Part shown: positions 1 to 28,602 of the stretch, in pieces
How the letters are laid out: each line of letters starts with the position of its first letter
Numbering within the stretch: the stretch's first letter is position 1
Assembly (NCBI GenBank): GCA_021803465.1
Contig: JAJZLL010000011.1
Location: 913-64,912, forward strand
Reading direction: 5' to 3'
Length of the DNA stretch: 64,000 nt
Source of the DNA: a bacterium
Lineage (GTDB): Bacteria; Chloroflexota; Dormibacteria; Aeolococcales; Aeolococcaceae
Notes under the pieces: model-generated
Databases searched by the model: none
Told to the model about the DNA's origin: nothing
What the model saw: only the letters and a program-made list of their open reading frames with translations
Made by a program: the position numbers and the translations under genes

Positions 1-191
1 CCTTCTTCGCTCCAGGCGGCATCCCGCAGTTCTAGGTCCCCTGTATTGGACTGTGGGAAGACAAGCTCCAGGTGTTGCTTTGTGAATGCTCATTCCGGCG
101 AACTTCTTTACACAGGAGTGAGACATCGTCTCATGTAGATAGTGGTGGGCACAAAGCACCGCTCCCCTATTGAGTGGCAGCAAATCCAGTC

Positions 192-776
192 CTATCCTGT
201 CAGATTCCACATGGGTGTCTGGCCCTCTGCACCAGCGATTGCGTAGGTCAGCTGCACGGGAACGGACTTCACGGGAACATCAAATACAATGTAACCACTA
301 GCTGGCTTGTTGAGGACAAAGACATTGAGCCCAGTTCCAGAAAGCTCATGTGCAAATGTTGTGGAGCCAAGTCCATGCAGGTCTGGCTGTTGCGCAACAG
401 GAAGGTGCTGTATTCCGTCCGAATCCGTGATGACTGCATACAGGCCAGCCATCATTGACACCTGGTCCGGTGGATTGGCATTCCCTGCAACACCTTCATA
501 TGTGATCTGGAGTTCCACTGCAACAGCACGCTGACCCTTAGGCGCACTGACTCCCTTGACTGGATCGACAATGTTCGCCAGCTTGACGTTCAAGCCGAGC
601 GGCATACCCTTCTGAACAAGCGTAGTTGGCTGGATCTGGCCAATTCCTGCGTAGTGCACGACAAATGGAGTAGCTGCAGTACCTGAGCTCCCTGCTCCCC
701 CACCGCATGCAGCAATGCCAAGAGTGATAAGCGCACCAAGTGCGAGTTGGACAAAGCGGTAGTGTCTCCTGTTCAT
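192..776 (-). CDS. Predicted lipoprotein of unknown function
   Basis: ORF 192..875 trimmed to internal Met (MNRRHYRFVQLALGALITLGIAAC...) giving signal peptide + lipobox LGIAAC; ATG overlaps stop of upstream gene (ATGA at 773-776), suggesting co-transcription. Confidence 0.5.
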   Translation of the reverse strand: MNRRHYRFVQLALGALITLGIAACGGGAGSSGTAATPFVVHYAGIGQIQPTTLVQKGMPLGLNVKLANIVDPVKGVSAPKGQRAVAVELQITYEGVAGNANPPDQVSMMAGLYAVITDSDGIQHLPVAQQPDLHGLGSTTFAHELSGTGLNVFVLNKPASGYIVFDVPVKSVPVQLTYAIAGAEGQTPMWNLTG

Positions 777-2197
777 GCGGCAGTTCTCCCAGCAGCTCCT
801 GATGAGCGCCGCCTGATCATGTAGACTGCTCCACCAATGATCACGACAACGATGACTATACCTGCAATGATCCATGGGGTCGCACCGGCATTTTGTGGAT
901 TGAGCGCGCCCACATTCACCGTGCTGCTCACTGTGGATCCTGTGTGCTCAAGAAGGTAGACATCAGTCCCACTAGAATCTCCTAAAACAGCTGCATGTCC
1001 ATTGCCAAACGACACAACACCAGTGAGCGCACCTGCCTGCACTTTCCCACCAATCTGAATATCTACTGAAGTCCAAGCTGTTCCATCAAAATGCGCGAGA
1101 TACGGGTAGGGCTTCGCGCTCTCGCCAAGATGCTGGAACGCAGTACCAGTGATCCATACATCACTTGAGGAGGTGGAAGAAATACCCGAGACATCAATGA
1201 CAGTGTCCCCATGGGGAATGGGCACATTCGCAATCTGCGAAATTTTTGAACCATTCCAGTGGAGTACGAGGGGGTACGAAACACTGTTCTGAATCGAAGT
1301 TCCTGATGTCACCTGTGCAAGGAACCACACATCCTTGGCACTGTTCTCATGAATTTCCAGAACGCTCACCAGAGTCCCCCCAGCTCCACTGGCAAGACTG
1401 CTGGGAGTCGGCACAACGCTCAATGTCGCTCCATTCCAGTGCTGTATGAGGGGTGCAGCACTTGTTGCTGTTCCCCCAGCCAACCATACGTCGTCTGGTC
1501 CCGTGGTTCCAACAGCAGCAAGGAAGACTCCCTTCACAGTTTCGGGAATACTCGTCCACTGTGAGCCGTTCCAGTGAAACAGGAATGTCGTGGGAACACC
1601 ATGGGGATCCTTGAGCGAATACCCCACAGCCCACACATTGTCGCTTGCCGATGCAGCAACGCCATACAGGACACCTGGAGTTGTCGAATCCGGTGAGGGT
1701 AACTGTGTCGCACTCCAGGAAGAGCCATTCCAATGTTCAGCAAGTGGAAATGCGTTCGTATTGTTCGAGTAGTCATACCCTGGCTGCGACCACCCCACTG
1801 CCCAGATATCTGAACTGGACAGAGCACTCACTGACATGAACTGCATGCTCTCATTTGGTGCAGGTGGAGACATGTTCGTCACTGTGTTGTTATCCACTCG
1901 CATGACAACCGGATGAATCTGCGAATGAATGGGCTTGGACTTTGTCTGCACTGTGTAACTGCCTGCCAAAACTGTCATGTTTCCGCTCCCTGGCACCGTG
2001 ACAATGTCAGAGAAGCTTTCCTTCACATTGAGTTTGGATGTCGACTGCGCCAATGGGGGGATGGAAACTTTACTCCAGCCTGTTCCCGTTGAGGCATCCA
2101 CCAGACTGCCACTCAGAAGAACCATTGCGCATGAGCTGATGAGTACTCCCAATGCCCGCCACATCAATGGGCCACCTGTATTGTGCGTCCGCTGCAT
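773..2197 (-). CDS. Secreted/cell-surface protein with ~50-aa-spaced 'HWNGS-W' blades (beta-propeller-like) and C-terminal TM anchor + RRR tail
   Basis: Signal peptide MWRALGVLISSCAMVLLSGSLVDA; recurring HWNGSSWS / HWNGSQWT / HWNGATLS / HWNGSKIS / HFDGTAWT motifs; C-terminal hydrophobic IIAGIVIVVVIIGGAV followed by IRRRSS. Confidence 0.5.
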   Translation of the reverse strand: MQRTHNTGGPLMWRALGVLISSCAMVLLSGSLVDASTGTGWSKVSIPPLAQSTSKLNVKESFSDIVTVPGSGNMTVLAGSYTVQTKSKPIHSQIHPVVMRVDNNTVTNMSPPAPNESMQFMSVSALSSSDIWAVGWSQPGYDYSNNTNAFPLAEHWNGSSWSATQLPSPDSTTPGVLYGVAASASDNVWAVGYSLKDPHGVPTTFLFHWNGSQWTSIPETVKGVFLAAVGTTGPDDVWLAGGTATSAAPLIQHWNGATLSVVPTPSSLASGAGGTLVSVLEIHENSAKDVWFLAQVTSGTSIQNSVSYPLVLHWNGSKISQIANVPIPHGDTVIDVSGISSTSSSDVWITGTAFQHLGESAKPYPYLAHFDGTAWTSVDIQIGGKVQAGALTGVVSFGNGHAAVLGDSSGTDVYLLEHTGSTVSSTVNVGALNPQNAGATPWIIAGIVIVVVIIGGAVYMIRRRSSGAAGRTAA

Positions 2198-2379
2198 AAT
2201 CCCATCCTTGAGTTTCCCTGTTAAGCAGTGATCACCCGTATTGCAGACCACAGCTCCTGCATCCCCATTAACCTAGCACGTTCTTCGAATACATGGTGGT
2301 CGCAATTGTGACACAGATGAAAGCGGCCGGCGCTCCTCTTGGAGCGGCCGACCGCTTTTGCTTCTTCAAGTTTGGACTG

Positions 2380-4413
2380 CTAGCCCTGATTTGGCTCAAC
2401 CTGCTTCACAATGAGGGGATTGGAATTCACCTGATTGTAGCTCACATTGGTTGTGGTCCATGGGAAGTCATGCCATGCACCCTGCAGGTAGAGAGGATAT
2501 ATCGGATAGGTGTACGACTGGAGATATGTGTGGTAGTTCCAGTACCACCCAGTGTACCAATAGCCCCAGGTTGCAATGTTGTAGTAGAGGTACCAGTTCG
2601 TGTAGCCCTGCGGAGTCGCGATGGTATAGGAGGGGTACCCAGCATAGCTTTCCCAGCCAATATTTCCAGCATAGTTGCAGTATGCGACCCACCATATTCC
2701 CATGTCCGCATCACCATCCCGGTCAGGGTTGACAGTCTGGTTGTCTGCACACTGGTCGAAGCCAACAGAGTTCCAGCCAGTTGCATATGCCTGCCATGCA
2801 GTACTGTATGAGAAGTTGTAGTCCGTATACGTCCCCCACACACCATAGGTCCACTGCGTGTAATCATACTTCGCGATCGGATCCTGGGACCAGCTGCCTA
2901 CCGTGTGGAGGCTCGTCTGTGTCAGTGGACTTGATGGTGCCTGTGGATAGAACTGGAAATATGGAGGGGGAACATTGTAGTTGTACTGGCATCCACCTGC
3001 CTGTGCACAGGTGTCCACGACCTGTCCACTGTACGGCTGTGGTCCTGTTGAATTCGGATTGGTCGTATAGGTTTGTGGATTGACCACATAGTAGGTGTAG
3101 GATGCCCACTGTGGAACATACTTGATGACCCATTGGTAGTTGAGCTGTGACGTGTGGTAGTAAGCAGTGTACGAAGCAACATGCTGCTGGTCAACGGACG
3201 GATATGTAGGAGAGCTGGTCAAATACGGAGCCCACCCGCCATACCAAGTCGTCACAACGGGTCCTGGATACCAGATTGCCGAAGGCTGGGTGGACATAGA
3301 CACATCATCACCATCATCGTAAAGACAGCCATACCACCTGCCATCAGGAATGTAGCCACCTCCGTAGTCGGCCTCTCCAGCCTCGTTCTGCCAGCCACCA
3401 CCCGCATTCACGCAGTAGTTGAACTCGTCTGACCACCACGGAAGAAACTGGTTGCCATCACTCCATGAGCAGCATCCAACGGAGCCACCCTGGTCAGCAC
3501 CAAGGAGCGGATAGTAGCCAGCAGGATAAACATACTGTGACGTGTACTGCTGCGAATTGTTTGTAATGTAGTACTGGGTGAAAGACTGGGTCTGATCATT
3601 CGTGTAGCCAGCACGCCATGCCTGTGGCTGCTGCGTCACATACGATGCATTTGCAGTGGGACATGTTGCTGTCGGAGTCCCCGCATAGACAGTGGCAGGG
3701 TTGCCGCAGTTGTACGATATCGTCTGAGCCTTAAGTTGGTAGGTTGTATATGGCTGCTTTCCAGACCAGATGACAACGAGGGAAGGTGTGTAGTTTCCAG
3801 CAGTCGCATATGTGTGAGTGACTTTCATGGTATATGTTGGAGGATTCGTTGCAGGTGAAGTAGCCGTGAGAGGTAACACAATGCATGGCTGTGTGGCACC
3901 AGACGCTGCCGAGGATGAGGTGTAAGGGAAATTTCTTGAGGAAACTGTATTCGTGGTGTAGTTGCAGACTGAGTTTGGATTCTGATTTGGGTAGTAGAAC
4001 TCGAGGACTACCTCAAATGGCTGCCACTCGATGAGCTCGTTGGTCCCGTTCGATGGAGCTGGAGCTGCAGGATTCGTGCAGGTCTGGAGGGGAATGGAGT
4101 TGTTTCCATTGACTGGCGGCTCAGTGTACACGCACTTGTCAACCTGTGCACTGAACTGTTCAGGATAGCCGACTACACCCGGGACTGGACCTTCAGTCAA
4201 AGAGGAACTGCTCGCAGGAGGGCATGATTGCTGTGATCCTGGAAGATAGCAGTTCAGCGTTGAGACTGGAGGGGGGCTCGATGCCTGCACAGTCTGCACA
4301 CCAAGCGTACCCAAGCCAATGACAAAGCTGCCAAGAGCAATCATCAGGGACACAACAATGCCAACGGCCCGGGATGACAGAGCCATCGCTGTCCTTTTCC
4401 ATGTACTTCTCAT
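2380..4413 (-). CDS. Large secreted Tyr/Trp/Thr/Gln/Asn-rich protein (N-terminal signal anchor), function unknown
   Basis: 682-aa ORF; N-terminal hydrophobic segment AVGIVVSLMIALGSFVIGLG; extreme aromatic/polar low-complexity composition (e.g. ...GYTNWYLYYNIATWGYWYTGWYWNYHTYLQSYTYPIYPLYLQ...); same strand and immediately downstream of TadE-like genes. Confidence 0.5.
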   Translation of the reverse strand: MRSTWKRTAMALSSRAVGIVVSLMIALGSFVIGLGTLGVQTVQASSPPPVSTLNCYLPGSQQSCPPASSSSLTEGPVPGVVGYPEQFSAQVDKCVYTEPPVNGNNSIPLQTCTNPAAPAPSNGTNELIEWQPFEVVLEFYYPNQNPNSVCNYTTNTVSSRNFPYTSSSAASGATQPCIVLPLTATSPATNPPTYTMKVTHTYATAGNYTPSLVVIWSGKQPYTTYQLKAQTISYNCGNPATVYAGTPTATCPTANASYVTQQPQAWRAGYTNDQTQSFTQYYITNNSQQYTSQYVYPAGYYPLLGADQGGSVGCCSWSDGNQFLPWWSDEFNYCVNAGGGWQNEAGEADYGGGYIPDGRWYGCLYDDGDDVSMSTQPSAIWYPGPVVTTWYGGWAPYLTSSPTYPSVDQQHVASYTAYYHTSQLNYQWVIKYVPQWASYTYYVVNPQTYTTNPNSTGPQPYSGQVVDTCAQAGGCQYNYNVPPPYFQFYPQAPSSPLTQTSLHTVGSWSQDPIAKYDYTQWTYGVWGTYTDYNFSYSTAWQAYATGWNSVGFDQCADNQTVNPDRDGDADMGIWWVAYCNYAGNIGWESYAGYPSYTIATPQGYTNWYLYYNIATWGYWYTGWYWNYHTYLQSYTYPIYPLYLQGAWHDFPWTTTNVSYNQVNSNPLIVKQVEPNQG

Positions 4414-4547
4414 CTCTGCAACCCCCAAGCCATGCTTCGAGTAGGTGTGATACCTTTCATTATCATTAACGCGACCAGCAATTCTGCGATGAGAGCGTCA
4501 CAGTGTCATGACGATTCTGTGGTCACTCGATGGATTCAGCATCCTGC

Positions 4548-5135
4548 TCAGCAGTAGTCAATCGGCACGCCTGTAGAAGGACATGTATGACTGCGGAATG
4601 GTTCCAGCGCTTCTGCAGATACTGCCCTCACTGTTGCGTGATTCCAGAGGGGAATCCAGGAGAGAGTGATGGTCGCTTTCACATCAACACCCACTACTCC
4701 TCCCCTCCATATGCCAAAACATCCGCCATCTCCTCCGGCTCCCCCATATCCATCACCAGTACATGATGCTGGTATGCCTGTACATGTGTTTGCCCCAGCA
4801 GTGCTTATTGTGCAGCTGGCTGAACTGAGAGCTGCAGCACATGTGATGGCAGGCGTTGGATACGGAGTTGTATAGAGTGGTGACTTCAACGCGCTGTCAA
4901 AGGCTGCAATGGCCTGTGCATACCCAGTGTCACCATTTGCGCATGAGTCGTTACTGTTTCTCGCAATGGTGAGAGCAGCCTCATTGGATGCCTGCTGGAG
5001 TAGGCTTTGCGCCTGAATGTACGAGTCAATTGCAATGGCTCCAAAGAACACCGTGATCATAACTGGCAGGAGAACAGCGAACTCCACCATCGTCTGGGCT
5101 CTTCCACTTCGCCGTTGGTAGGTACGCCTTCTCAT
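4548..5135 (-). CDS. TadE-like Flp pilus assembly protein (pseudopilin)
   Basis: N-terminal TadE motif RAQTMVEFAVLLPVMITVFFGAIAI; ATGA overlap with upstream gene at 5132-5135. Confidence 0.7.
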   Translation of the reverse strand: MRRRTYQRRSGRAQTMVEFAVLLPVMITVFFGAIAIDSYIQAQSLLQQASNEAALTIARNSNDSCANGDTGYAQAIAAFDSALKSPLYTTPYPTPAITCAAALSSASCTISTAGANTCTGIPASCTGDGYGGAGGDGGCFGIWRGGVVGVDVKATITLSWIPLWNHATVRAVSAEALEPFRSHTCPSTGVPIDYC

Positions 5136-5743
5136 TGTTCAAACTCCTGCACAGTGAAGGTGTCTTGGGCATATACGGGAAGTCTGTTGCCAAGTATGGG
5201 AGCAGGTGCAATGAGAGGCTTGTACCCTACTATGGTCACAGTGATAACGAGTGTTGATGTCAGGGATCCACCGTTTGTGTTCGCTGTTGCGCACACCATG
5301 AGAACATTTGATGCTGATGCGGATACACGAGTATTGAGGTATGCAAGTTCCTGCTTTTCTGTTGGTGGAGTTGACACACTGTATGTGGGACCAAGAGGAC
5401 GATATCCCAGAGGACAGGATGTGACAGGCATTGGATTCCCCGCACCACATCTCCCTCCTGTAGTTCCGCTTACCAGTGGTGTTGTGCCAAGAAAGCTTTC
5501 CGAAGTCGCTGCATGGTACGCCGTCTCCCCAGCTAGACATTCCAGTTGTAGAGCATTCGTTGGCATGCCTGCTACCTGAACTCCCTCCTGAGCAGCAAAT
5601 TCGAGACTGTTGAGGTCCAGCTGCCAAAGGAAGGCAACCACTCCTCCAAAGATGATGACAATGAACACAGGGAAAACGAAGGTGAATTCCACAAGCGACT
5701 GAGCTCGTGACCTTTTCCTCAAAGTTGTCGAAGGTGCTCTCAT
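5132..5743 (-). CDS. TadE-like Flp pilus assembly protein (pseudopilin)
   Basis: N-terminal RAQSLVEFTFVFPVFIVIIFGGVVAF matches TadE/TadG-like N-terminal domain. Confidence 0.7.
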   Translation of the reverse strand: MRAPSTTLRKRSRAQSLVEFTFVFPVFIVIIFGGVVAFLWQLDLNSLEFAAQEGVQVAGMPTNALQLECLAGETAYHAATSESFLGTTPLVSGTTGGRCGAGNPMPVTSCPLGYRPLGPTYSVSTPPTEKQELAYLNTRVSASASNVLMVCATANTNGGSLTSTLVITVTIVGYKPLIAPAPILGNRLPVYAQDTFTVQEFEQ

Positions 5744-5744
5744 G

Positions 5745-6611
5745 TCAGTCTCCTAAACAGCCATACGCTGTGGATTTCGACTGCATGAGGATGGAGGACT
5801 CGCCAATGAAGACCCCAAATGGCTGGCTCGCCTGCATCCAGATTCTGACTGTCACCTGCCTTCCGAAAAGTCCTGTTGCTGGACACACATACAGGGATCC
5901 GGATGATGAATCATGAGCATCCGTCTGAGCTGCACCACCGGCCCCGACATCATCACTCACTCCACCAGTCGGGTCATCGCCATCAAGCATGTACGATGAA
6001 CTTACTTGCACCTGGAACTCAATATTTGTCAGAGAACTTCCCTGCTCAGCAGCTTTGCACTGTGACGAAGTGTATACGCCAGTTCCGCTTTCTGTTCCCT
6101 CACAGGGCTGTGTTGCTGTTGGAGCTGCTGCTGCATTTATCGTATACCCGGGAAAGGCCTGCTTGAGCACATTATTCACAGAGTATTCTGCGGACAGCGA
6201 GGCGATCTGCTGCTCCTCTGTCTGGACAATTGCCCAATCAGCAGGGCTGAACGATGCAGGTGTTCCAAGAATGCCGGGGGACGTTTCCATGGGAAACATG
6301 TCCGGAGCGATGCCCGAAGCATAGTCAGTGGTGTAACCACCATACTGACATTCATATTCGTTGTAGTTGTACTGAGATGCCATGCACGCATCACCGCTAG
6401 CAGCGATAGCGGCAACGACAGTCGCTGCATCTAGCCTGCTCCTCGCGTTGAGGAAAATCTCGCCAGACATTGTGAGCCCCAGGAGGGCAATGATGACAGG
6501 AAGCATGAGAGCGAACAGGGGCATGACCTGAGCCCTGCCTGTGGAACGTGCACCAGTCAGCCGAGACTCTGAATATCCCAGATCAAACCGCACCTGGGAC
6601 AGCCTTCGCAT
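5745..6611 (-). CDS. TadG-like putative pilus assembly protein
   Basis: N-terminus GRAQVMPLFALMLPVIIALLGLTMSGEIFLNARSRLDAATVVAAIAA resembles Tad N-terminal (PF13400-type) segment; long Ser/Thr/Gly-rich extracellular part; start trimmed to MRRLSQ... Confidence 0.55.
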   Translation of the reverse strand: MRRLSQVRFDLGYSESRLTGARSTGRAQVMPLFALMLPVIIALLGLTMSGEIFLNARSRLDAATVVAAIAASGDACMASQYNYNEYECQYGGYTTDYASGIAPDMFPMETSPGILGTPASFSPADWAIVQTEEQQIASLSAEYSVNNVLKQAFPGYTINAAAAPTATQPCEGTESGTGVYTSSQCKAAEQGSSLTNIEFQVQVSSSYMLDGDDPTGGVSDDVGAGGAAQTDAHDSSSGSLYVCPATGLFGRQVTVRIWMQASQPFGVFIGESSILMQSKSTAYGCLGD

Positions 6612-6765
6612 TGTGCTTCGAGTATGTCTTCGGTTCCGAATCACATGCACGTCCTTATTGCAGCCCAAATTGCATCCGCAGCTCCATGGTCACATCTGTT
6701 CCCAAGAAGCGCAACTGCATGTTGGTTACAACATTGACACGGAATCATGCACACGCTCGCTGCCT

Positions 6766-7662
6766 TCATGATGCATCCCCGTCATGTCCATTCGTGTCCC
6801 CTGCATTGGAAGCGGAATATCCCTTGAGATATGTCACTGTTCCCTGCCCGATGGTACTGCCCATAATGGAGCTTCCGCTTGCTCCGATAGTCACCGTAAC
6901 ACTGCCAAGCCCTATCCCCGGCAGAGCAATGCTCCATTCTCTAATGGATCTGGATCTATCAATGAACACGGTAGCGTAAAGCTTAGCGCCATGAGTGAGG
7001 GCAGTCTGCGCAAGCCGGTTCGCCGCAACTGCGAGAGGCCCAGATGCGCGTGAGGGAACAACGGCAAGATCCACCTTGCAGGTGATTTCCTCACCAATCA
7101 GACCATCAAAGGTCACATTCTTGGCGGATACGATGCCAACAGTTCCCCAGTCAATGAGGGAAAGAGACACAGCCGGATCAACCGTCACCAAGTCTGCCAC
7201 TGTGGCGGGGAGCTGTCTTGTTACAGTGGGCACTGTGCTCAGCTGGGCAGCAGTCCACTTGGACGGCTGTGCATTCTGTGGAACAATGCCACTATAGAAG
7301 AGTGTGCTGTCACCGAACTCCATCACAACTGCTTTGCCTGACTTCACATCTATGTTCAGGAATCCCGAATCAGAAGAGAAATCGAATCTCCCTGCAGCCT
7401 CAGCACCCAGATGGAATGGCAACAGTGGCACACTGGAGTTCCACGACTCTTTCACGCTGTAGGCTCCCTGACTGATGGCAGCAACACTTGCAGCAAGTTC
7501 ATTGATATATGGGATTGCTGAAGCTGGTGGTACATCAGAAAACGATGGTCCGCCCGAGATTGAGGATGTGTCCAGGCTGTGACTCGCACATGAAGTTCCC
7601 ATGGTAATCACAAAGCAGGCTGCAAGTAATACGTGGATTCTGGATTTATGGGAACAGAGCAT
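6766..7662 (-). CDS. Hypothetical secreted lipoprotein
   Basis: 298-aa ORF, N-terminal signal with LAAC lipobox-like motif; embedded in Tad operon on same strand. Confidence 0.45.
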   Translation of the reverse strand: MLCSHKSRIHVLLAACFVITMGTSCASHSLDTSSISGGPSFSDVPPASAIPYINELAASVAAISQGAYSVKESWNSSVPLLPFHLGAEAAGRFDFSSDSGFLNIDVKSGKAVVMEFGDSTLFYSGIVPQNAQPSKWTAAQLSTVPTVTRQLPATVADLVTVDPAVSLSLIDWGTVGIVSAKNVTFDGLIGEEITCKVDLAVVPSRASGPLAVAANRLAQTALTHGAKLYATVFIDRSRSIREWSIALPGIGLGSVTVTIGASGSSIMGSTIGQGTVTYLKGYSASNAGDTNGHDGDAS

Positions 7663-7741
7663 GACATCCCTCTTCGCTTCTCTTCCCCTTCCCTGCAGCC
7701 CCCCCCAACCGGCTCAAAAAGGTTTGCCCTGAACCAGGTAT

Positions 7742-8326
7742 CTACAGCCTGTTGAGCGGGCTTGGAAGTGTGGAGCCAAACATGTAGGACGAGTATACGG
7801 TGATGGGCTGCTGTGCACTGAGGAAGTAGACAATGTACTTCACTGGATTTCCTTGAGAAGAACTTCCAACGCTCGTGACAGTGAAATTGCCCTGCACAAT
7901 CACCACCCACACCTTGGACGGAATGTGTGGCACTCCATTCACATACTGGCTCACCAGCGACTCATCCACCAACTGTGGTGGCAGGCAGCTTATCGCTCCT
8001 TTTGCAGAGATGTTGCCCTGCTGGTTGAGGATCTCATGAACCAGCGAAACGAGCTCAGATACAGTAGTTGCTCCGCTTGGTGTCGCAATGGGGGGGAGTG
8101 TCTGCCCTGGAGACAACGTAATTGGGGAGGGTGTTGGACCACCCGGTTGATATGTTGCAGATCCACAGTTCGCGTCATACTTCGCATTCACAAGCGGTCC
8201 AACATGGGTGCTTGGTTTGGGGATGCTAGGTGTTGGAGTGGTTTGCTTCGCTCCCTGCTGCTGTCCGCATCCTGCAAGGAGGAGAATCCCAGACAATATT
8301 GCAGCAATTGATGCGATTTTCTTCAT
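7742..8326 (-). CDS. Hypothetical lipoprotein
   Basis: MKKIASIAAILSGILLLAGCG signal peptide/lipobox; Pro/Thr-rich linker. Confidence 0.5.
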   Translation of the reverse strand: MKKIASIAAILSGILLLAGCGQQQGAKQTTPTPSIPKPSTHVGPLVNAKYDANCGSATYQPGGPTPSPITLSPGQTLPPIATPSGATTVSELVSLVHEILNQQGNISAKGAISCLPPQLVDESLVSQYVNGVPHIPSKVWVVIVQGNFTVTSVGSSSQGNPVKYIVYFLSAQQPITVYSSYMFGSTLPSPLNRL

Positions 8327-8363
8327 GGCAAATTCTGACCTTTTCGTGTTCATGGTTGTACGC

Positions 8364-9212
8364 CTACCCGAAGAGTTGTTGGAACGAACCTGAATTCACT
8401 CCAGGGTCGGGAGTTGGTGAAGGAGAGCTGCCATAGGTAATGAAGTTCGAGTTGCTGAGAAGAACATATTCAAGGATTGAGCTCTGCGTTGGATTCTTTG
8501 GATCCATGATATAGCTCAGCAGTTCAGCTTCAGACTCTGGAATGCCGACAATAAGCTCAGAAGCAGTACCTGAATTTGCCTGTCCTACAGTACCAACATT
8601 GAGGATCGTCACATTGTGCGCGATGACCTTTATCTGGCCCTGGCCATTGACGTCCGCAAGTATGTCAATCTGGTCTCCTGGCTGAAGGAATCCGCCCACT
8701 CCCTCCATTGCGTTCATGGGTATGGCAAGCGCCACATAGCCTGAGGGAAGCGAGAATGGATCCTCTCGACATGTACCCTGCGAGACTGCAGTTGCTTTTG
8801 GTGAACTTGACGGCGAGGTGGACGTTATGAGCGTGGGAGCGGCTGAAGCCTGCGGAGTGCACACTACAGCAATGCCCGTTGTTTTCGTTGGACTCACAAG
8901 GCTTGGAGTGAGTATCTGCTGAGGTGCAATGCTGACAATCGCATACTGGCCGACTACTTTTGACGGATTCGTATACGCGCCAGCTGGAACAGCAGTCGTT
9001 GGCACCTGCACTGCAGAGACTTCAGCCTGGGTGATAGCGCTGCCGTTTGGAATTTCGCTTGTGGCCTCAACGACGTACACCATGGGAACGCTCGAGATGC
9101 CGCCCCCTGCTTTCGTAAGCACGATGAGACCAACTGCTCCAGCAGCGGCAATGATGAGACCCACGACTATCGCGATGAGTTTGTTCGGACGGCCACCTGG
9201 CCTCATTGTCAT
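8364..9212 (-). CDS. cpaB: Flp pilus assembly protein CpaB/RcpC (SAF-domain)
   Basis: N-terminal TM (LIAIVVGLIIAAAGAVGLIVL) followed by SAF-like segment VVEATSEIPNGSAITQAEVSAVQVP and RcpC-like C-terminus; start trimmed to internal Met. Confidence 0.65.
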   Translation of the reverse strand: MTMRPGGRPNKLIAIVVGLIIAAAGAVGLIVLTKAGGGISSVPMVYVVEATSEIPNGSAITQAEVSAVQVPTTAVPAGAYTNPSKVVGQYAIVSIAPQQILTPSLVSPTKTTGIAVVCTPQASAAPTLITSTSPSSSPKATAVSQGTCREDPFSLPSGYVALAIPMNAMEGVGGFLQPGDQIDILADVNGQGQIKVIAHNVTILNVGTVGQANSGTASELIVGIPESEAELLSYIMDPKNPTQSSILEYVLLSNSNFITYGSSPSPTPDPGVNSGSFQQLFG

Positions 9213-9498
9213 ACCCATAGAGCTGATCCTACGTCCTTTTCTAAGCTGCATTGGCGGTGCGAACCGCATGGGGAGACGTATGCGATTCGACACCTAGTGT
9301 AGGGTAAACGGGAGGAAATGTGTGATGATCCGTGTTACGATCCTGTGCCAATGGGAACGCGACAGCCATTCACTTCCCACCCTGTCCACGTGCACGTCAC
9401 AGCGAGGTGACAGATCTGCAGCACCAGTCCCTGCGCAGGCGCTTCCATCCTACAGTTGGGACATCAACGCTGTGCAGCTTCGAGGGAGGAGCACCACC

Positions 9499-11793: not shown

Positions 11794-12224
11794 ACGAGAG
11801 GAAGCCACTCAGCAATCAGACTGATCCCCTGCATACCTATGTCCAGAAGGATGAGTTCTACACCCTCTCTGCACCAGAAAGGAGTGGATCATCCAAGACG
11901 CTGTGCCTGTTTCTGCTTGATCCCGAACTGAACGAGCAGTCCCGCGAGGGCCACTTCTCCCTCATCTCCGGGTACACGCGTGAGAATGAGCCGAAGTGCA
12001 TCATTGCTGATGCCCTTGCTGTCCTTCTCATTGAAGGCGGTGTGGAGGGTGCTGGACGACTGTGTGGACGCATTCTCCAGCTGTTCTCATCCCTTCACCT
12101 AGCGCAGATTCTCACAGTGCTTGTCACTTCCCTACCTGGACCACTCACTCCCGAGCGCACAGCAGAGCTTGTTGCCAAGGGACGGACACTGGAAGCTGGT
12201 GCAGTCCACGTCATCGGGGAGTAG
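11790..12224 (+). CDS. Hypothetical protein
   Basis: 144-aa ORF whose start overlaps the stop of the formyltransferase gene (operon-like); no recognisable motif. Confidence 0.4.
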   Translation: MNERKPLSNQTDPLHTYVQKDEFYTLSAPERSGSSKTLCLFLLDPELNEQSREGHFSLISGYTRENEPKCIIADALAVLLIEGGVEGAGRLCGRILQLFSSLHLAQILTVLVTSLPGPLTPERTAELVAKGRTLEAGAVHVIGE

Positions 12225-12244
12225 CATCACTTCGTTTCCCGGAT

Positions 12245-12292
12245 GCGGCAGGAGCGGCAGCACATGGGAATCATGTCCTGCCACTCCCTGCG
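12245..12292. terminator. Putative bidirectional hairpin terminator between convergent flp and hypothetical gene
   Basis: Imperfect inverted repeat gcggcaggagcggcag ... ctgccactccctgcgg in the 89-nt convergent intergenic region. Confidence 0.35.
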
Positions 12293-12313
12293 GTTGTTCA
12301 CTTCAAGGGATAT

Positions 12314-12529
12314 CTATCCAGTCGCGTATTTCACTCCTTTCTCAATGTTGGAATACACGTTGTTGACCTGGTGACCAAGAAGAATGACTGTCACAAGCAC
12401 CGCCAGCGCAATGAGTACGATTATGAATGCATATTCGACGATACCCTGACCCTTCTCATCCTGGCTTCCCAGTCGCATCCCGTCCCTGCATCGCAGCAGG
12501 CCGGGAAGAGATCGAAGCCACGTTGCCAC
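12314..12529 (-). CDS. flp: Flp family type IVb prepilin
   Basis: Processing/mature motif GQG|IVEYAFIIVLIALAVLVTVILLG (G/XXXXEY) with short C-terminus; probable GTG start (VATWLRS...) 9 nt downstream of SD GGAAAGGAGG. An in-frame ATG at 12478 would give a shorter leader. Confidence 0.7.
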   Translation of the reverse strand: MATWLRSLPGLLRCRDGMRLGSQDEKGQGIVEYAFIIVLIALAVLVTVILLGHQVNNVYSNIEKGVKYATG

Positions 12530-12538
12530 TATAGGCTG

Positions 12539-12619
12539 CCTCCTTTCCGTCTCGTGTTCTCGCACGCCCAATAATTCTGTGCCGAATTATAGCACCCTGT
12601 TACATTCGCAACTGCGATG
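12539..12619 (-). promoter_or_regulatory. Putative flp promoter and ribosome-binding site
   Basis: Perfect -10 TATAAT (complement of 12586-12591) with TTGCGA-like -35 upstream; SD GGAAAGGAGG (complement of 12539-12548) before GTG start. Confidence 0.4.
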
Positions 12620-13555
12620 TCATCCACCTGTCATAATCTTGACGATTGCGGGCCCGAGAAGCACGAGAAACACGCATGGAAAGATGCAGAGCAGCATGGG
12701 AAGCAGCATGAGTACAGGTGCCTTGTGTCCCGCCTCCTCCGCCCTCTGCTTCCGTATTCTCCGGAGTTCCTCCGACTGGACACGGAGCACATTGGCCACA
12801 CTCACGCCAAGGGGTTCTGCCTGAACGACTGCCCGGATGAAGTTGTCGAGCTCATCGACTGGATTCCTCTCCGACATGGCAGTGAGAGCCTCAAGCCGTG
12901 GCCTGCCCAGACGGATCTCGTCGAGTGTCTTCTGGAACTCCTTTCCCAATGGACTCTGTTCCGACTCGGCCACACGGTTCATGGCCATGTCCATGCTGAG
13001 CCCTGCCTCCATGCTGATGGTCAGGAGATCCATGACGCCTGGAAGGGCACGGGAGATGAGCTTCTGCCTCTTCTTGATCTTGCTCTTGAGTGATGAAACA
13101 GGAAGACTCCTGCCAAAGAAGACCCCTCCTGCAACTGCTGCAAGCGTGATCGGAAGCCCAAGGCTGAGATAGTTCCCCAGGAAGAATGCTGCCACGACAA
13201 AGACGATCGGGAGAATGATCTGCTGTCCCAACAGCATCTGGGGTGACTTCCCCTCAACGTCAGCCTGGACAATAAGCCGCTGGAGTTTCTCGATCTGGCC
13301 CGCCTTCGAATTCCTCATCATGAGGTTGCCAATGCGGTTGAAGAGCGGTGATATCACCCGTTCCGAGAAGGGAAGGGCCATCTCGTCATCACTGGCTGGC
13401 AGTGCAATGTTCGAACTTCCACCCATTGCCTCATCAACTCCGTAGAGGCGCTGCTCAAGGCGATCCTTGCTGGTTGAGGGAGAAGCTATCACAAGCACGA
13501 GGACAAAGACCCCGATGATGACTGCAATGCCTTCCACGATAGTGATCGGTGTCAT
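12620..13555 (-). CDS. tadC: Tad pilus inner-membrane platform protein TadC (T2SS F family)
   Basis: 311 aa, N- and C-terminal TM helices flanking cytoplasmic T2SSF-like domain (LISRALPGVMDLLTISMEAGLSMDMAM...). Confidence 0.8.
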   Translation of the reverse strand: MTPITIVEGIAVIIGVFVLVLVIASPSTSKDRLEQRLYGVDEAMGGSSNIALPASDDEMALPFSERVISPLFNRIGNLMMRNSKAGQIEKLQRLIVQADVEGKSPQMLLGQQIILPIVFVVAAFFLGNYLSLGLPITLAAVAGGVFFGRSLPVSSLKSKIKKRQKLISRALPGVMDLLTISMEAGLSMDMAMNRVAESEQSPLGKEFQKTLDEIRLGRPRLEALTAMSERNPVDELDNFIRAVVQAEPLGVSVANVLRVQSEELRRIRKQRAEEAGHKAPVLMLLPMLLCIFPCVFLVLLGPAIVKIMTGG

Positions 13556-13560
13556 TACTG

Positions 13561-14547
13561 CTACACCTCCACATTCACTATCTTGCGGATGATGGCATAG
13601 CCGCCTGCAATCATGAAGAAGGCAAAGCCGAGCATGATCTGGCCAGGCAGCTTCGTGAGCATGGGATCAAAGTAGGTTGGAGCAATCATGTAGAGGATTC
13701 CACTCAGTGCCAGCGGCAGCACTATGAGCACCCAGCCTGAAGCACGGGCCTGTCCAGTTATGGTCTTGATCTCACCCTTGATGCGCACACGTTCCCGGAT
13801 GGTGTATTCGATGTTGTCAAGAATGACAGCGAGATTTCCACCCACCTGCTGCTGGATCTGGATGGCTGTCATGAGAAGCTTCAGGTCCTCCGACTCGCTC
13901 CGCTCGACCATGTGGCCAAACGCCTCAATGAAGGGGACTCCCAGCTGTGTCTCCCGCATCACGCGTGCGAGATCTGGCCCCATGGGTGGAGCCGCATTCT
14001 GGGAAACCAGACTCATCGCCTGAGCAAGCGTGTACCCCGCCTTGACTCCATTGCTGAGTGCGAGGACAGTCGGGCCAAGCTGGTCCTCAAACTTCTTCCG
14101 CCGCTTGTTGTAGCGCATCTTCAGGTAGTAGCGGGAACCGACAATGCCAATGATTATGCCCACAATGAGACCAAGGATGCTTTTGAAGCGCAGCATGAGC
14201 AGCAGTCCCAGCACAATGCTTCCCGCAGTCGACATCGCTGTCCACTCCGCTGGGTGCAGCTTGAGGTCAGCCCTCTGCAGCTGCTCCACCAGCTTTGCTC
14301 CACGAGTGGACTTTTCGAAGCGCTTCCCAACACTCTGCTGCAGCGAATCGCGGATGTCGAACGACCTCCGCTTCGTGCCCTGAAGCGCAAGAGGAGTGTC
14401 TCCATACTCATCTTCCCATTCACTCTCCATTGACGGCGTGGCTTCAGGCTCTTCCGCAGCACGGGCCTTTGAGCCCGTGAGGAGGAACACTGCGCTGAAC
14501 ACTCCCAGGATGACGAGTGCACCGGCAATGAGAGAGACGAAAGTCAC
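13561..14547 (-). CDS. tadB: Tad pilus inner-membrane platform protein TadB (T2SS F family)
   Basis: 328 aa, T2SSF-like domain (FEDQLGPTVLALSNGVKAGYTLAQAM...), adjacent to tadC. Confidence 0.8.
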   Translation of the reverse strand: MTFVSLIAGALVILGVFSAVFLLTGSKARAAEEPEATPSMESEWEDEYGDTPLALQGTKRRSFDIRDSLQQSVGKRFEKSTRGAKLVEQLQRADLKLHPAEWTAMSTAGSIVLGLLLMLRFKSILGLIVGIIIGIVGSRYYLKMRYNKRRKKFEDQLGPTVLALSNGVKAGYTLAQAMSLVSQNAAPPMGPDLARVMRETQLGVPFIEAFGHMVERSESEDLKLLMTAIQIQQQVGGNLAVILDNIEYTIRERVRIKGEIKTITGQARASGWVLIVLPLALSGILYMIAPTYFDPMLTKLPGQIMLGFAFFMIAGGYAIIRKIVNVEV

Positions 14548-14562
14548 AGTTGTTCACCCATG

Positions 14563-15420
14563 CTACTGGACGTAGTTGTTGATGTTTGATGGACCGACTG
14601 ATGCTGCCCCGGAAAGCTGGCCATTCTGGTACAGGGCACCGTTGGCAATGACAAAGCTCAGAATTGCGGACGGGTTTGTTGCCTGGAGATATTCGAAGGC
14701 TGCAGCCTGAGCTGGCGACATCTCCACAATGAGCACGGAAGGCGTGGTCACAACGGGTGGTGGAGCTGCTGTCGTACTGCCAGACTTCGCTGCAGGAGAT
14801 GCAGCAGTGGCCGATATTGTTTCATCAAGACTTCCCACCTTGAGCACTTTGACATCCTGGAATCCGTACGATACGGGAGTGCCTTTGCCCCCAATCTGGG
14901 TGAGGATGTTGATGAAGTCACCCGGCTGGATGTAGTAGCCAAGACCAAGGGTCACGTTTGTGGTGATTGCCACAGCAACATCCCCTGGATCGGGGAACAC
15001 GCTGTCCGAAGCGGAAGGGACACCTGTCGCATTCGATGTCACAAATGTGGACTGCAGAATTGTGCCCTGGGCTATCTGGATCGCAGAGAACTTGCCAACG
15101 ACTCCTGTCGTAGTCGAAAACACTGTCCCCTGCGGGAGTACTGTCTGGGGAACCTTCTTGACTGCAACCATGCTCAGGGAGAGCAGTGTGCCCTGGGGAA
15201 TGGGCGATGAGGCAACAACGACACTCACTGTAGGACCCTGGACTGACCCTGTGGGCGTGCCAGCAGCCTTTGGAGCATGACCCTGGGACAGGGCAAGAGC
15301 AAATCCTCCAGCTGCGACAACTGCGGCAATAATAGCAATGAGAATCCTTCGGCTTTGTCCACCTTGGTTCACTGAAGTCTCCTTTTGGATGGGCTCACAC
15401 TCACAGCAGTGCTCATACAT
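14563..15420 (-). CDS. cpaB: Second CpaB/RcpC-like Flp pilus assembly protein (SAF domain)
   Basis: N-terminal TM (ILIAIIAAVVAAGGFALAL) + SAF-like segment and Pro/Thr-rich C-terminal part; same architecture as 8364..9212. Confidence 0.6.
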   Translation of the reverse strand: MYEHCCECEPIQKETSVNQGGQSRRILIAIIAAVVAAGGFALALSQGHAPKAAGTPTGSVQGPTVSVVVASSPIPQGTLLSLSMVAVKKVPQTVLPQGTVFSTTTGVVGKFSAIQIAQGTILQSTFVTSNATGVPSASDSVFPDPGDVAVAITTNVTLGLGYYIQPGDFINILTQIGGKGTPVSYGFQDVKVLKVGSLDETISATAASPAAKSGSTTAAPPPVVTTPSVLIVEMSPAQAAAFEYLQATNPSAILSFVIANGALYQNGQLSGAASVGPSNINNYVQ

Positions 15421-16205: not shown

Positions 16206-17681
16206 TCAGACGTGGAGCTGCTCCCGTGGAGTTCCATCGCCCGACTCCAGCACTGGTGCCGGTTCCGGCTCGGCAGGAACCACCTTGCCATTCTGTGGCT
16301 TCCCGCTCCGTTTCGCCTTCCTCGCAATTCTGGCCGCTTTTTCCCGCTTGTCGAGTATCGGCTTGATGTAGAGCTTGAGAATGATGCCCATCATGATGAG
16401 AAAGAAGGACACGTACACGAGGGGCACACCACTGTCCTTTGAGATCTGAAAGAGGGAATACGGCTTCAGCGCTGTGAACGAGATCGTGAATGGCACAGAG
16501 GTGTTGTTCGCCCCAGGAAGCTGCAGCTTCAGCGTTGTGCCAAGCGGAATGTAGACTTCCTGTCCGTTCTGGAAGTATGGCACCATCTGGGAAACATCAA
16601 GAGTGTCAACATTCTGGGGTACTCCATTGGTGAGTCCAAGGTTGCCAATGAAAAGCTGCATGCCCACAACGGGATTGTTGGCCACTCCACCTCCAGCAGT
16701 ATATGTCGTCCCAATAGTGTTGAGCTGTCCAGCATTTGTCACAGGGACAATCGTTCTCGCATCTGGAAGCATGACCATCTGTGCACCGAGCTGCAGGGGA
16801 TGGTGCGAGCCGGGGACAGTGTAGTTGAAGTCAGGCACCTTGAGCACGCATGTCTCATCGGACTTGTTCTCACCAAAGCACTCGATGGGACTGCTGAACA
16901 CGACCTGCCCTGCTGGATTGCGCACAGTAATGACTGGAGCCCAGCCATAGTCCTGCTGGTAGATGTGAATGCCATCGACAGCAAGGTAGTGGTTCACCTC
17001 CACATTGCGCGTCATGATCGGCTTTCCCTGCCTTTCAACAGTGATCGAGCTTTTGTAGAGGCTTGCCACTCCACCAGCACCGTACTTCGCGACAAAGCTG
17101 TTGAGATGAAGCTGGAGATTCGTGTGATAGCCGTTGGATAGCACTCCCTGCTCGAGCGAATCATACGATGCTGCTGCCTCTGTGACTGTCTGTCCCTGGA
17201 TGATGGTGAGCAGACCGTCGAAACCTGTCGCCTTGCCCCAGACTGCTGCAAAGAGGATGAGAAAGAACGATGTGTGGAAGAGCCAGCTTCCCCACTCTCC
17301 CCAGTACTGCGCATTCCGCGCATATCCGCGGACTGTCCGCACAACAAGAGCCTGCCCCCTTCGTAGGACACACCACCCGAGCGACAGATAGAGGCAGGCG
17401 ACAAGGGCATAGAACAGGGGGGACACAAACACGGAGGTGAGCGGGAGTCCCACTGCTGCTGCAAGACTGTTGAGATGCTGGTGCGAGGCAAGGAATGAGT
17501 CGACAAGCGTCTGAGAATCCGTGTTCTGCTGCGGCACAAGCGCACCAATGAGCGTGATGGCAATGATGGCGATCAGAAAGTAGATCGCAGTGCGCATCCT
17601 CGTGAACTCATGCCAGAACCGCAGCCAGAGCTGCAGTACACGTGGAGTACTCTTGCGCTTCGCAGTTGCGTGCGTTGACAC
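16206..17681 (-). CDS. resB: Cytochrome c biogenesis protein ResB/Ccs1
   Basis: 491 aa; N-terminal TM pair, large extracytoplasmic domain, C-terminal TM and Lys-rich tail, typical ResB topology and N-terminal sequence. Confidence 0.7.
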   Translation of the reverse strand: MSTHATAKRKSTPRVLQLWLRFWHEFTRMRTAIYFLIAIIAITLIGALVPQQNTDSQTLVDSFLASHQHLNSLAAAVGLPLTSVFVSPLFYALVACLYLSLGWCVLRRGQALVVRTVRGYARNAQYWGEWGSWLFHTSFFLILFAAVWGKATGFDGLLTIIQGQTVTEAAASYDSLEQGVLSNGYHTNLQLHLNSFVAKYGAGGVASLYKSSITVERQGKPIMTRNVEVNHYLAVDGIHIYQQDYGWAPVITVRNPAGQVVFSSPIECFGENKSDETCVLKVPDFNYTVPGSHHPLQLGAQMVMLPDARTIVPVTNAGQLNTIGTTYTAGGGVANNPVVGMQLFIGNLGLTNGVPQNVDTLDVSQMVPYFQNGQEVYIPLGTTLKLQLPGANNTSVPFTISFTALKPYSLFQISKDSGVPLVYVSFFLIMMGIILKLYIKPILDKREKAARIARKAKRSGKPQNGKVVPAEPEPAPVLESGDGTPREQLHV

Positions 17682-17745: not shown

Positions 17746-19275
17746 CTACGGAGCAGCTATTCGAACGAGCAGTGCATCCCGTGCTGAAAGCGCGAGATGG
17801 TACACCACGGGAACAAAGACACCAAGAACCACTGTCGCAGCGACACCAAGTCCCACGACCACAGCCCCCACCCGTGCTGGAGCCAACCACGAGACAGTCC
17901 CACCCTGTTCGCTCTCCTGTGGACTGTAGAGGATGAGAATGACACGGATGTAGTAGAAGATGGATATCGCACTTGTAAGCACTCCCCAGATGGCAAGGGC
18001 AATCTGGCCATTCTGTATGGCGCTCGTGAACACAAAGAACTTTCCCCAGAAGCCCAGCAGCGGAGGGAATCCTGCGAGCGACAGCAGTGAGAGGGCCATC
18101 ATTGCTGCAACATACGGATGCGCATGTCCCAGTCCGCGAAGTGACCGGTACGAGGAGGAATCATCATCCCCCTTGGCAACAAGCATCACGCCCGCAAGAA
18201 CCCCAAAGGTGCTGAGCGTATACGCAGCAAGATACACAAGCACTCCCGCAATTGCAGCACTGCCAGACACGGCAACACCAATGAGCATGTATCCAGCCTG
18301 CGCGATGCCCGAGTATGCAAGCATGCGCTTGATGTTCGTCTGCCGCAAAGCCACAAGGTTGCCAATGAGCATGGAGAGGATGGAGATGGCGGATACTGCG
18401 ACTTCCCAATGCGTGTACAGCGGCGTGAGGGCAACACTGAAGATGCGGAGAATGGCTGCGAAGGCTGCCACTTTTGTGGCCACACTCATGAACGCAGTGA
18501 CTGCAAGTGGAGCTCCCTCATAGACGTCCGGTGTCCACATGTGAAATGGAGCTGCACTTACCTTGAAGCCGAGTCCCACGAAGACGAGCACAATGCCAGT
18601 GAGGAGGAGCGGATCCACGCTCTGCAGGTCTGCTGCAACAACCTGGGCAATGGCAGGAAGCTGCGTGTGGCCAGTTTCGCCGTAGACAAGTGCCATTCCC
18701 ATCAGGAGGATAGCGGAAGCGAATCCTCCCATGAGGAAATACTTGAATCCTGCTTCCTGGGACTTCGTGTTCCCACGCCGGAACCCTGACAGCAGATACA
18801 GAGCCAGTGAGAGGACCTCGATGGAAAGGAAGACCATCATGAGGCTCTCCGAGGAGCCAAGAAACATCATTCCCGCACTTGCTGCAAGGATAAGCGAGTA
18901 GAACTCCCCATGGTGGATCTTCTGTCGCTCAAGATACGAAGGGCTGAGCGCAACGACAAAGATGGCTGCAATGAGGATGAGGGCATTGATGAACAGCCCG
19001 AAACGGTCATACGAGAAGGATTCCGCATAGACGGAGATCTGCTGGCCACCAACTGTCACCCAGTCAATGACTGTGACAGCACCTGAAGCGAGCAGCACGA
19101 GGAGTGACCATGCTGCGAGCCACGACTTTCTCGAAGGAGGAATGAGCGTGTCAAGGACCATGGTGACAATGAATCCACCACCGACAATGAGCTCAGGAAG
19201 GAGATGGACAACATCAGCTCCTGAAGGAAACTGGAGTGCAGGAAGGGTGGCTGCGAGCATGTGCGCGAAGGTCAT
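17746..19275 (-). CDS. nuoN: NADH-quinone oxidoreductase subunit N
   Basis: 509-aa polytopic antiporter-like subunit; last gene of the nuo operon. Confidence 0.9.
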   Translation of the reverse strand: MTFAHMLAATLPALQFPSGADVVHLLPELIVGGGFIVTMVLDTLIPPSRKSWLAAWSLLVLLASGAVTVIDWVTVGGQQISVYAESFSYDRFGLFINALILIAAIFVVALSPSYLERQKIHHGEFYSLILAASAGMMFLGSSESLMMVFLSIEVLSLALYLLSGFRRGNTKSQEAGFKYFLMGGFASAILLMGMALVYGETGHTQLPAIAQVVAADLQSVDPLLLTGIVLVFVGLGFKVSAAPFHMWTPDVYEGAPLAVTAFMSVATKVAAFAAILRIFSVALTPLYTHWEVAVSAISILSMLIGNLVALRQTNIKRMLAYSGIAQAGYMLIGVAVSGSAAIAGVLVYLAAYTLSTFGVLAGVMLVAKGDDDSSSYRSLRGLGHAHPYVAAMMALSLLSLAGFPPLLGFWGKFFVFTSAIQNGQIALAIWGVLTSAISIFYYIRVILILYSPQESEQGGTVSWLAPARVGAVVVGLGVAATVVLGVFVPVVYHLALSARDALLVRIAAP

Positions 19276-22834: not shown

Positions 22835-22838
22835 TGCA

Positions 22839-23147
22839 TTAGTCCTTCATCTCATCAAGGCGGTCAACATCCAGGGTGTGTTCTGCACGGAACACTCTTG
22901 TGACCATGGCAAGTCCAACAACAACTTCCGCTGCTGCAACAACAATCACCATGAAGGCGAACACCTGTCCAGCAAGGCTGTTCAGTGCTCGTCCATATGC
23001 CACGAGAACAAGATTCACGGAATTCAGCATCAGCTCGATTGACATGAAGATGACGAGCGGGTTTCTCCTGATGAGGACACCAGTCGCCCCAATCATGAAA
23101 AGGAGTGTTCCAAGAAACAAGAGGAATTGAAAATCTCCAGTGCTCAC
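22839..23147 (-). CDS. nuoK: NADH-quinone oxidoreductase subunit K
   Basis: 102 aa, three TM helices, conserved NuoK sequence. Confidence 0.9.
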   Translation of the reverse strand: MSTGDFQFLLFLGTLLFMIGATGVLIRRNPLVIFMSIELMLNSVNLVLVAYGRALNSLAGQVFAFMVIVVAAAEVVVGLAMVTRVFRAEHTLDVDRLDEMKD

Positions 23148-24333: not shown

Positions 24334-24343
24334 CCCCCTCTCC

Positions 24344-27291: not shown

Positions 27292-27301
27292 GCTCCCCTC
27301 C

Positions 27302-28582: not shown

Positions 28583-28602
28583 GAATTTCCTCGCAGTACA
28601 TT

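Follow-up and report, generated by a model that had tools for sequence, protein, structure and literature searches.

An aromatic-rich protein encoded behind Tad minor-pilin genes in a Dormibacteria genome: a putative secreted surface-binding protein of a lineage-restricted family

The target gene and its locus

The window analysed here is a 64,000-nucleotide (nt) stretch of Dormibacteria DNA (contig JAJZLL010000011.1, forward-strand positions 913 to 64,912), and the gene in question, referred to below as the target, is an open reading frame (ORF) at 2380..4428 on its minus strand, whose product is exceptionally rich in Tyr and Trp and which stands directly behind genes for components of a Tad (Flp) pilus. 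It is a single ORF of 682 codons when read from a TTG, from which residues are numbered throughout. On sequence grounds the TTG is unlikely to be the real start, with either ATG 4413 (M6) or ATG 4386 (M15) probably to be favoured. The former gives a protein of 677 amino acids (aa), is preceded at 8 nt by a GGGGG and lines up with the N-termini of the orthologs, while the latter gives the 668 aa of the public annotation, P0001. Coding statistics, which the initial annotation had named as a point on which its reading could fail, were sound. The G+C content at third codon positions was 0.57, inside the range of the neighbouring genes (0.43-0.55) or slightly higher, and the ratio of nonsynonymous to synonymous substitution rates (dN/dS, Nei-Gojobori) between the two closer orthologs of the target, at loci L001 and L002, was 0.055. 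A spurious or non-coding ORF was thereby effectively ruled out, and the target is a genuine, strongly conserved gene.

Upstream of the target, on the same strand, lie two genes for TadE-like minor pilins, of 195 aa (4548..5135, minus strand; PF07811, E=1.1e-8) and 203 aa (5132..5743, minus strand; PF07811, E=1.4e-6), and one for a larger TadE/TadG-like protein (5745..6668, minus strand; 307 codons, annotated as 282 aa). The last gives a weak PF07811 match under the cut-off (E=0.012), and its N-terminus, GRAQVMPLFALMLPVII, parallels those of the two other TadE-like proteins. The target is therefore co-directional with TadE/TadG-like genes, as had been described. Its placement at the distal end of their operon did not hold, since two further co-directional envelope genes follow downstream (773-2197 and 192-875).

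These genes form the second of two minus-strand blocks into which the Tad system is split. The second block runs, in order, cpaB, a lipoprotein gene, a 298-aa gene, the three TadE-like genes, the target, the gene for a 474-aa propeller protein and a second lipoprotein gene (192-875, minus strand). Its first gene is CpaB/RcpC-like (8364..9293, minus strand; PF16976, E=8e-10; SAF, E=1e-7), and the lipoprotein encoded after it has 203 aa and an LLLAGC lipobox (7742..8353, minus strand). The first block is cpaB-tadB-tadC-flp (12314-15420) and contributes the second of two CpaB/RcpC paralogs (14563-15420, beside that at 8364-9293). It ends, directly after tadC, in a gene for a Flp pilin (12314..12478, minus strand) with the prepilin motif G/QGIVEYAF (sequence MRLGSQDEKGQG/IVEYAF...). 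A plus-strand ORF at 12062-12574 overlies the Flp gene and is probably spurious, at least in part. The two blocks are parted by three plus-strand housekeeping genes, namely a 159-aa gene, an HhH-GPD glycosylase and a formyltransferase, and the same split was seen in L002. No TadA/CpaF ATPase, prepilin peptidase or secretin was found in or beside the two Tad blocks, the remaining window having been incompletely scanned. Further along, as ordinary housekeeping surroundings, a ResB-like cytochrome c biogenesis gene (16206-17681) is followed by a complex I (nuo) operon (17746-30473, minus strand), in which three Proton_antipo_M subunits were identified by Pfam at 17746-22834; the ORFs beyond, up to about 30.5 kb, were assigned to nuo from their size and order alone.

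A small family confined to Dormibacteria-type genomes

The breadth of the family was assessed through searches of increasing depth. A word-indexed search of 5.8 billion clusters returned the target itself and one 51 %-identical cluster only, the latter labelled in one source as a protein from a Candidatus Dormibacteria metagenome-assembled genome (MAG). Among GTDB representative genomes two loci were found, both in Dormibacteria/Dormibacterota MAGs. An exhaustive HMMER profile search of 1.84 billion representatives added three more members, bringing the total to five clusters against a background of about 15 billion predicted proteins. The added members are P0005 (671 aa, E = 2e-46), which is ~30 % identical to the target over its full length, P0007 (675 aa, E = 7e-5) and P0006 (276 aa), which comprises the N-terminal domain only. 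P0006 stops at a genuine stop codon after 276 aa and may be either naturally short or a broken gene. Repeating the word-indexed search with a wider alignment yielded no additional homologs, and no relative turned up when JGI metagenome contigs were scanned with a peptide pattern. A scan of the same contigs with the 21-nt DNA block described below picked up five AT-rich contigs without homologs of the operon, which were rejected as chance matches. Judged by sequence, the target founds a new, lineage-restricted family found in a few uncultured Dormibacteria-type genomes.

The initial annotation had recognised neither a catalytic motif nor a described family in the target, and the searches bore this out, with zero matches in Pfam, NCBIfam and PDB; for NCBIfam this applied to the whole target protein. 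Profile searches of PDB, made with the full protein and with each of its two domains separately, returned nothing except a chance 11-bit match to Caskin-1. For the C-terminal domain, neither Pfam nor PDB gave a match even at E ≤ 10. The target had no Pfam match at E<=0.1, whereas the three upstream genes matched PF07811 with the E-values given above. A pseudopilin identity is not supported, given this lack of a PF07811 match and because the N-terminus carries a signal-peptidase-type site, V-x-A↓S (the arrow marks cleavage). The PilY1/PilC beta-propeller was not found in the C-terminal 400 residues (Pfam, NCBIfam, PDB), and PDB-wide profile searches gave zero relevant matches, tāpirins included, at E<=10. 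No SLH domain, other wall-binding module or C-terminal anchor was found in the target.

Export signal and domain architecture

The first 49 residues (4282..4428, minus strand) read by eye as a Sec-type signal peptide with predicted cleavage at VQA↓SSPPP. It has a basic n-region, a hydrophobic core and a V-x-A↓S site that is kept in all relatives, in versions that include QTVQA↓SS, QTVAA↓SS, PTVRA↓SG and QPALA↓SD, and upstream extension of the P0007 ORF gave a normal signal peptide there too. The initial annotation had described an N-terminal signal anchor, and the hydrophobic core of the window protein is indeed long. Since the relatives have h-regions of ordinary length and the V-x-A↓S site is conserved, the export signal stands but the anchor is doubtful, and the Sec signal peptide of the target is probably cleaved.

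The mature protein divides into two parts. Residues ~50-280 (3589..4281, minus strand) make up an N-terminal domain that is the best-conserved part of the family and is predicted to be all-beta. It contains a PKD-like motif, H-x-Y-x-x-x-G-x-Y-x-x-x-L-x-V, and its segment THTYATAGNYTPSLVVIW matched PKD_4 at E = 0.023, at 15.2 bits under a cut-off of 27 and in only one of six members. An AlphaFold2 model of this domain alone was all-β but of modest quality, with a predicted local distance difference test score (pLDDT) of 52 and a predicted template modelling score of 0.53. The domain is probably, at low confidence, an immunoglobulin (Ig)/PKD-like sandwich with Cys-rich insertions.

Residues 281-682 (2383..3588, minus strand) form an aromatic-rich orphan domain that holds most of the Tyr and Trp, 8 of the 16 cysteines and two conserved acidic clusters. 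Full-length AlphaFold2 prediction on a four-sequence alignment was unusable (mean pLDDT 27), with pLDDT about 20-25 over this domain, which is probably a new fold. Its acidic clusters are DDGDD and N-x-D-x-D-G-D-x-D. The second corresponds to the loop N-P-D-R-D-G-D-A-D-M-G (residues 567-577; 2698..2730, minus strand), and D-x-D-G-D-x-D is present in five of six full-length members; from their sequence, both clusters may bind metal, the loop possibly Ca2+. The C-terminal tail, PLIVKQVEP (2392..2418, minus strand), follows the family pattern [PT]L.V[KD]Q.[EQ][PG] and is kept throughout the full-length members, even in P0007 with its 28% identity. It ranked 28th of 391 among overlapping 12-residue windows of the C-terminal part, and the protein ends ...VKQVEPNQG without a transmembrane (TM) segment.

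The strong Tyr/Trp/Thr/Gln/Asn bias noted at the outset was confirmed. The main residues of the target are Y 10.6, T 10.4, S 8.8, P 8.8, G 8.2, Q 7.3, N 6.6 and W 4.3 %, and both peptides originally quoted occur in it, WWSDEFNYCVNAGGGWQNEAG spanning residues 331-351 and WYLYYNIATWGYWYTGWYWNYHTYLQSYTYPIYPLYLQ residues 612-649. Tyr and Trp together reach 14.8 %, compared with 3.66 ± 1.59 % across the other long ORFs of the window (n = 64, non-overlapping; z = 7.0). The bias is locally extreme at residues 601-650, with 19 Tyr/Trp and zero charged residues, a stretch that is far less aromatic in P0005 and P0007. Lys and Arg account for only 2.2 % of the target and all charged residues for 7.5 %; the mature part is net acidic, with 35 Asp+Glu against 11 Lys+Arg. 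The other exported proteins of the cluster are charge-poor as well, with K+R+D+E of 8-13 %, as opposed to 20-29 % for cytoplasmic proteins (window positions 1-9300 and 23000-64000, respectively). The low charge of the target is therefore in part an organism-wide trait, which may be an exoproteome adaptation to conditions such as low pH. The aromatic excess, unlike the low charge, is specific to the target.

Conservation within this composition is positional and extends over the whole length of the protein. All 16 cysteines are invariant within the clade, and the most conserved residue types are Cys, followed by Asp, with Gly and Pro also prominent. Aromatic residues are kept as a class, at 80 of 111 positions between the target and P0002 (21 expected), and with z ≈ 10 against the ~30 %-identical P0005 and P0007. 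Internal repeats or periodicity were not found in the target, the best self-alignment score being 69 against 53 +/- 7 for shuffled sequences (maximum 69). The absence of repeats, the invariant cysteines and the positional conservation over the full length together indicate a folded, disulfide-bonded globular protein.

Transcription signals around the target

The initial annotation had suggested that the target may be co-transcribed with the TadE/TadG genes. The gap between the nearest tadE-like gene and the target is 119 nt and contains no terminator-like site. The gap does, however, contain a 21-nt block, GTTAATGATAATGAAAGGTAT (4450..4470, minus strand), about 36 nt upstream of ATG 4413 and with a -10-like GATAAT. 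The block, unique in the window with 0 occurrences expected by chance, is found at the same place in L001-L006 (L001 3808-3822; L002 9959-9973), and GTTAAYRATAATGAAAGGTAT at 4450-4470 is conserved in all orthologous loci amid diverged intergenic DNA. From this pattern it is a candidate promoter of the target's own, or a regulator site. At the other end of the gene, a G+C-rich hairpin of 17 base pairs (2320..2358, minus strand; dG -32 kcal/mol) lies 22 nt past the stop codon. Strong hairpins of other sequence occupy the same place in L001 (about 5882-5913) and L002 (about 12018-12049), with a compensatory G-C/C-G swap between them. None of these hairpins, from three species, has a clear U-tract on the coding strand, the T-rich run in the window being on the opposite (+) side, and the hairpin is a candidate transcript end or stabiliser. 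Consensus scans for sigma-70 promoters and terminators scored at or below shuffle expectation and were uninformative alone. Because the target has a promoter-like block of its own and a hairpin at its end, it need not be co-transcribed with tadE; the signals suggest that the target can form its own transcription unit, with read-through from tadE also possible.

Genomic context across the family

The order of the second block was identical in L001/L003, in L002 and in other assemblies of the window organism. The window, L001/L003 and L002 are, however, collinear across the whole region (>20 kb), housekeeping genes included, so that synteny among these three close genomes is weak evidence of a functional link. 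Beyond them the picture changed, and three TadE-like genes precede the target in the window's own clade only. At L007 (P0005) the upstream genes are divergent cytochrome-b genes with no TadE, and at L014 (P0006) a 617-nt gap separates the gene from an upstream membrane protein with an HExxH motif. The latter (L014 311-964) is a 217-aa polytopic protein with a zinc-protease-like HEVGH. At L008 (P0007) about 250 nt of upstream DNA were available and held no TadE. As no TadE was seen upstream at L007, at L014 or in the available DNA of L008, nor any other Tad gene in the DNA available for these three more distant relatives, the family is not tied to tadE. The Tad linkage of the initial annotation therefore held within three close, collinear genomes and not across the family, and a link between the target itself and the Tad pilus genes remains plausible.

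Homologs of two non-pilin envelope genes of the window cluster do recur beside family members. Downstream of P0005 lies a homolog (28 % identity) of the propeller gene g492, and directly downstream of P0007 lies a homolog (L008 2446-3018; 40 % identity) of lipoprotein 7742-8353, on a contig without detectable Tad genes, which points to a functional pairing that does not depend on the pilus. The contig carrying P0006 ends 17 nt past its stop codon. The g492 product itself (474 aa; 773..2197, minus strand) has a signal peptide, a beta-propeller with five or more HWNGxxW-type repeats, a C-terminal TM anchor and a basic tail. Its propeller belongs to a large surface-module family (939 matches) that is often fused to SLH, Big or CarboxypepD_reg. 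A possible sortase signal, raised by faint NCBIfam matches and an NPQNAG (sortase-B-like) motif, was rejected in favour of a plain TM anchor, as the motif was not kept in orthologs.

Interpretation of the target protein

Taken together, these results lead us tentatively to favour, at somewhat less than an even chance, a Sec-secreted, disulfide-stabilised, non-catalytic surface binding protein (adhesin) that acts with the propeller protein and the lipoprotein. The surface- or carbohydrate-binding role put forward in the initial annotation is still the most reasonable one. The target would be exported by the Sec system, lose its signal peptide and be stabilised by disulfide bonds outside the cell. 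The Ig/PKD-like domain would then serve as a stalk or spacer, and the ~400-residue domain of unassigned fold, aromatic-rich, acidic and nearly free of charged residues, would be the binding part, its conserved Tyr and Trp positions offering platforms for stacking or hydrophobic contact with an insoluble ligand, for instance a polysaccharide or some other surface. As partners we infer the membrane-anchored g492 propeller and lipoprotein 7742-8353. The gene, apparently a transcription unit of its own, stands behind the Tad minor-pilin genes in the window clade, and its product would possibly be used with the pilus, as tāpirins are.

A structural component of the envelope (wall, S-layer-like, sheath or matrix) that self-assembles, with no specific ligand and no link to the pilus, was considered unlikely, although several features fit it. 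Low charge, richness in Thr, Ser, Asn, Gln and Tyr, and acidity are typical of surface-layer proteins, and the target has all three. Its promoter-like element and strong terminal hairpin are of a kind common for abundant structural proteins, its neighbours are lipoproteins and a membrane-anchored propeller, and family members occur outside Tad contexts. Against this, the target lacks an SLH domain, a wall-anchoring domain or a C-terminal anchor, it has no repeats, and it shows no enrichment of N-x-S/T sequons (10, with 7.9 expected). Sixteen conserved cysteines, moreover, are unusual among S-layer proteins, and a distribution of five clusters is too narrow for a core envelope component.

An improbable alternative is a tip protein of the Tad (Flp) pilus, in which the TadE-like complex would capture the Sec-exported target, PLIVKQVEP would add a beta-strand to the minor-pilin sheet, and the aromatic-rich domain would be displayed at the tip as the adhesin. 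The position of the target, immediately behind three co-directional TadE-like genes across a short gap free of terminator-like sites, argues for this, as does the identical arrangement in L001 and L002. It parallels pilVWX-pilY1 and mshDOP-mshQ, in which a large non-pilin docks via its C-terminal ~10 residues (PMC13533445). The extreme C-terminus of the target is kept in all five full-length members, and its signal is of the Sec type rather than the prepilin type, like those of PilY1-type proteins. PilY1 and PilC carry Ca-binding loops, and the target has its conserved acidic D-x-D-G-D-x-D loop. Points against a tip protein include the absence of tadE upstream at L007, at L014 and in the DNA available for L008, and the >20 kb collinearity of the genomes that do show the linkage. 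A conserved promoter-like block precedes the target itself, the protein lacks the PilY1/PilC propeller domain, and its tail, though well conserved, is not the top segment. Furthermore, a TadG-sized pilin-like gene is already present at 5745-6668. In the Tad pili studied so far, TadG/CpaL are taken to provide the terminal strand in cis, with no trans partner needed (PMC13533445), and known Tad tips are customised by the pilins' own domains, as in Myxococcus (PMC12075869). The stronger form of this proposal, that the target is the first known case of a Tad (type IVc) pilus with a non-pilin tip adhesin acting in trans, Sec-exported, locked onto a TadE/F/G-like complex through beta-strand addition by its tail and offering a novel aromatic-rich fold as the adhesive surface, is more doubtful still.

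There is likewise only a slim chance that the target is an enzyme or toxin that is secreted and whose catalytic fold has gone unrecognised, such as a polysaccharide-active enzyme with the N-terminal Ig-like domain as accessory module; no match to any catalytic family was found. Finally, a functional amyloid or low-complexity fibre protein, an option that the initial annotation had also entertained and that the extreme, uncharged composition of residues 601-650 would fit, or else a spurious ORF, is very improbable in view of the lack of repeats above shuffles, the position-specific conservation, the invariant cysteines, the dN/dS of 0.055, the much lower aromatic content of 601-650 in P0005 and P0007, and the absence of a Pfam match to functional amyloid families (curli CsgA, chaplins, TasA).

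Dormibacterota, an uncultured phylum, have been reported mainly from soils, and to our knowledge nothing is known experimentally of their surface biology. If the target binds as proposed, its ligand would reveal to what Dormibacterota cells adhere. Docking on the Tad pilus would represent the recruitment in trans of a non-pilin adhesin, as in T4a and MSHA pili, which is absent from the current Tad model; a trans tip adhesin would, if true, carry the PilY1/MshQ principle over to the Tad clade and the likely monoderm candidate phylum Dormibacterota. No mechanistic discovery is claimed at this stage, and the target is a candidate for structure determination, as a possible new fold, and for binding screens.

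Comparison with known systems

The closest functional precedent, by analogy, may be the tāpirins of Caldicellulosiruptor (e.g. Calkro_0844), orphan secreted proteins that adjoin a type IV pilus locus and bind cellulose via lines of surface aromatics (bioRxiv 10.1101/359786). Tāpirins and the target are both secreted proteins of roughly 600 aa with a signal peptide, of narrow lineage, with genes that adjoin a type IV pilus locus in a host that is probably monoderm. Tāpirins are non-catalytic, as is proposed for the target, and their binding is ascribed to surface aromatics. The two differ in that they share no sequence similarity, the tāpirin C-terminal domain is a beta-helix, the tāpirin locus is of the T4a type rather than Tad/Flp, and the target is Cys-rich.

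A second comparison is with PilC/PilY1, for which docking by β-strand addition has been shown, and MshQ, for which it is predicted (PMC13533445). Like the target, these are large, Sec-exported non-pilins encoded downstream of minor pilins, with a conserved extreme C-terminus and an acidic loop. The target differs in having no propeller domain and in belonging to a Tad (T4c) system, and its linkage to minor pilins is not family-wide, the position directly downstream of them being true in the window, L001/L003 and L002 but not in L007 or L014, with none in the ~250 nt of L008. TadG, CpaL and KilN are large Tad minor pilins whose variable distal domains have been proposed to customise the pilus tip (PMC12075869, PMC13533445). 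They share with the target a size of about 600 aa, an association with tadE/tadF, a richness in disulfides and a distal domain of unassigned fold. The target, however, has neither a pilin-like N-terminal helix nor a TadE motif and carries an ordinary signal peptide, and a separate TadG-like candidate exists at 5745-6668. With PKD/Ig-like surface proteins, the N-terminal domain of the target has in common its motif and predicted beta-sandwich; it differs in its score (15 against 27 bits) and its large Cys-rich insertions, and the likeness covers about one third of the target. There was no evidence for a categorically new mechanism, and the probable role of the target as a pilus-locus-associated, secreted binding protein has precedents.

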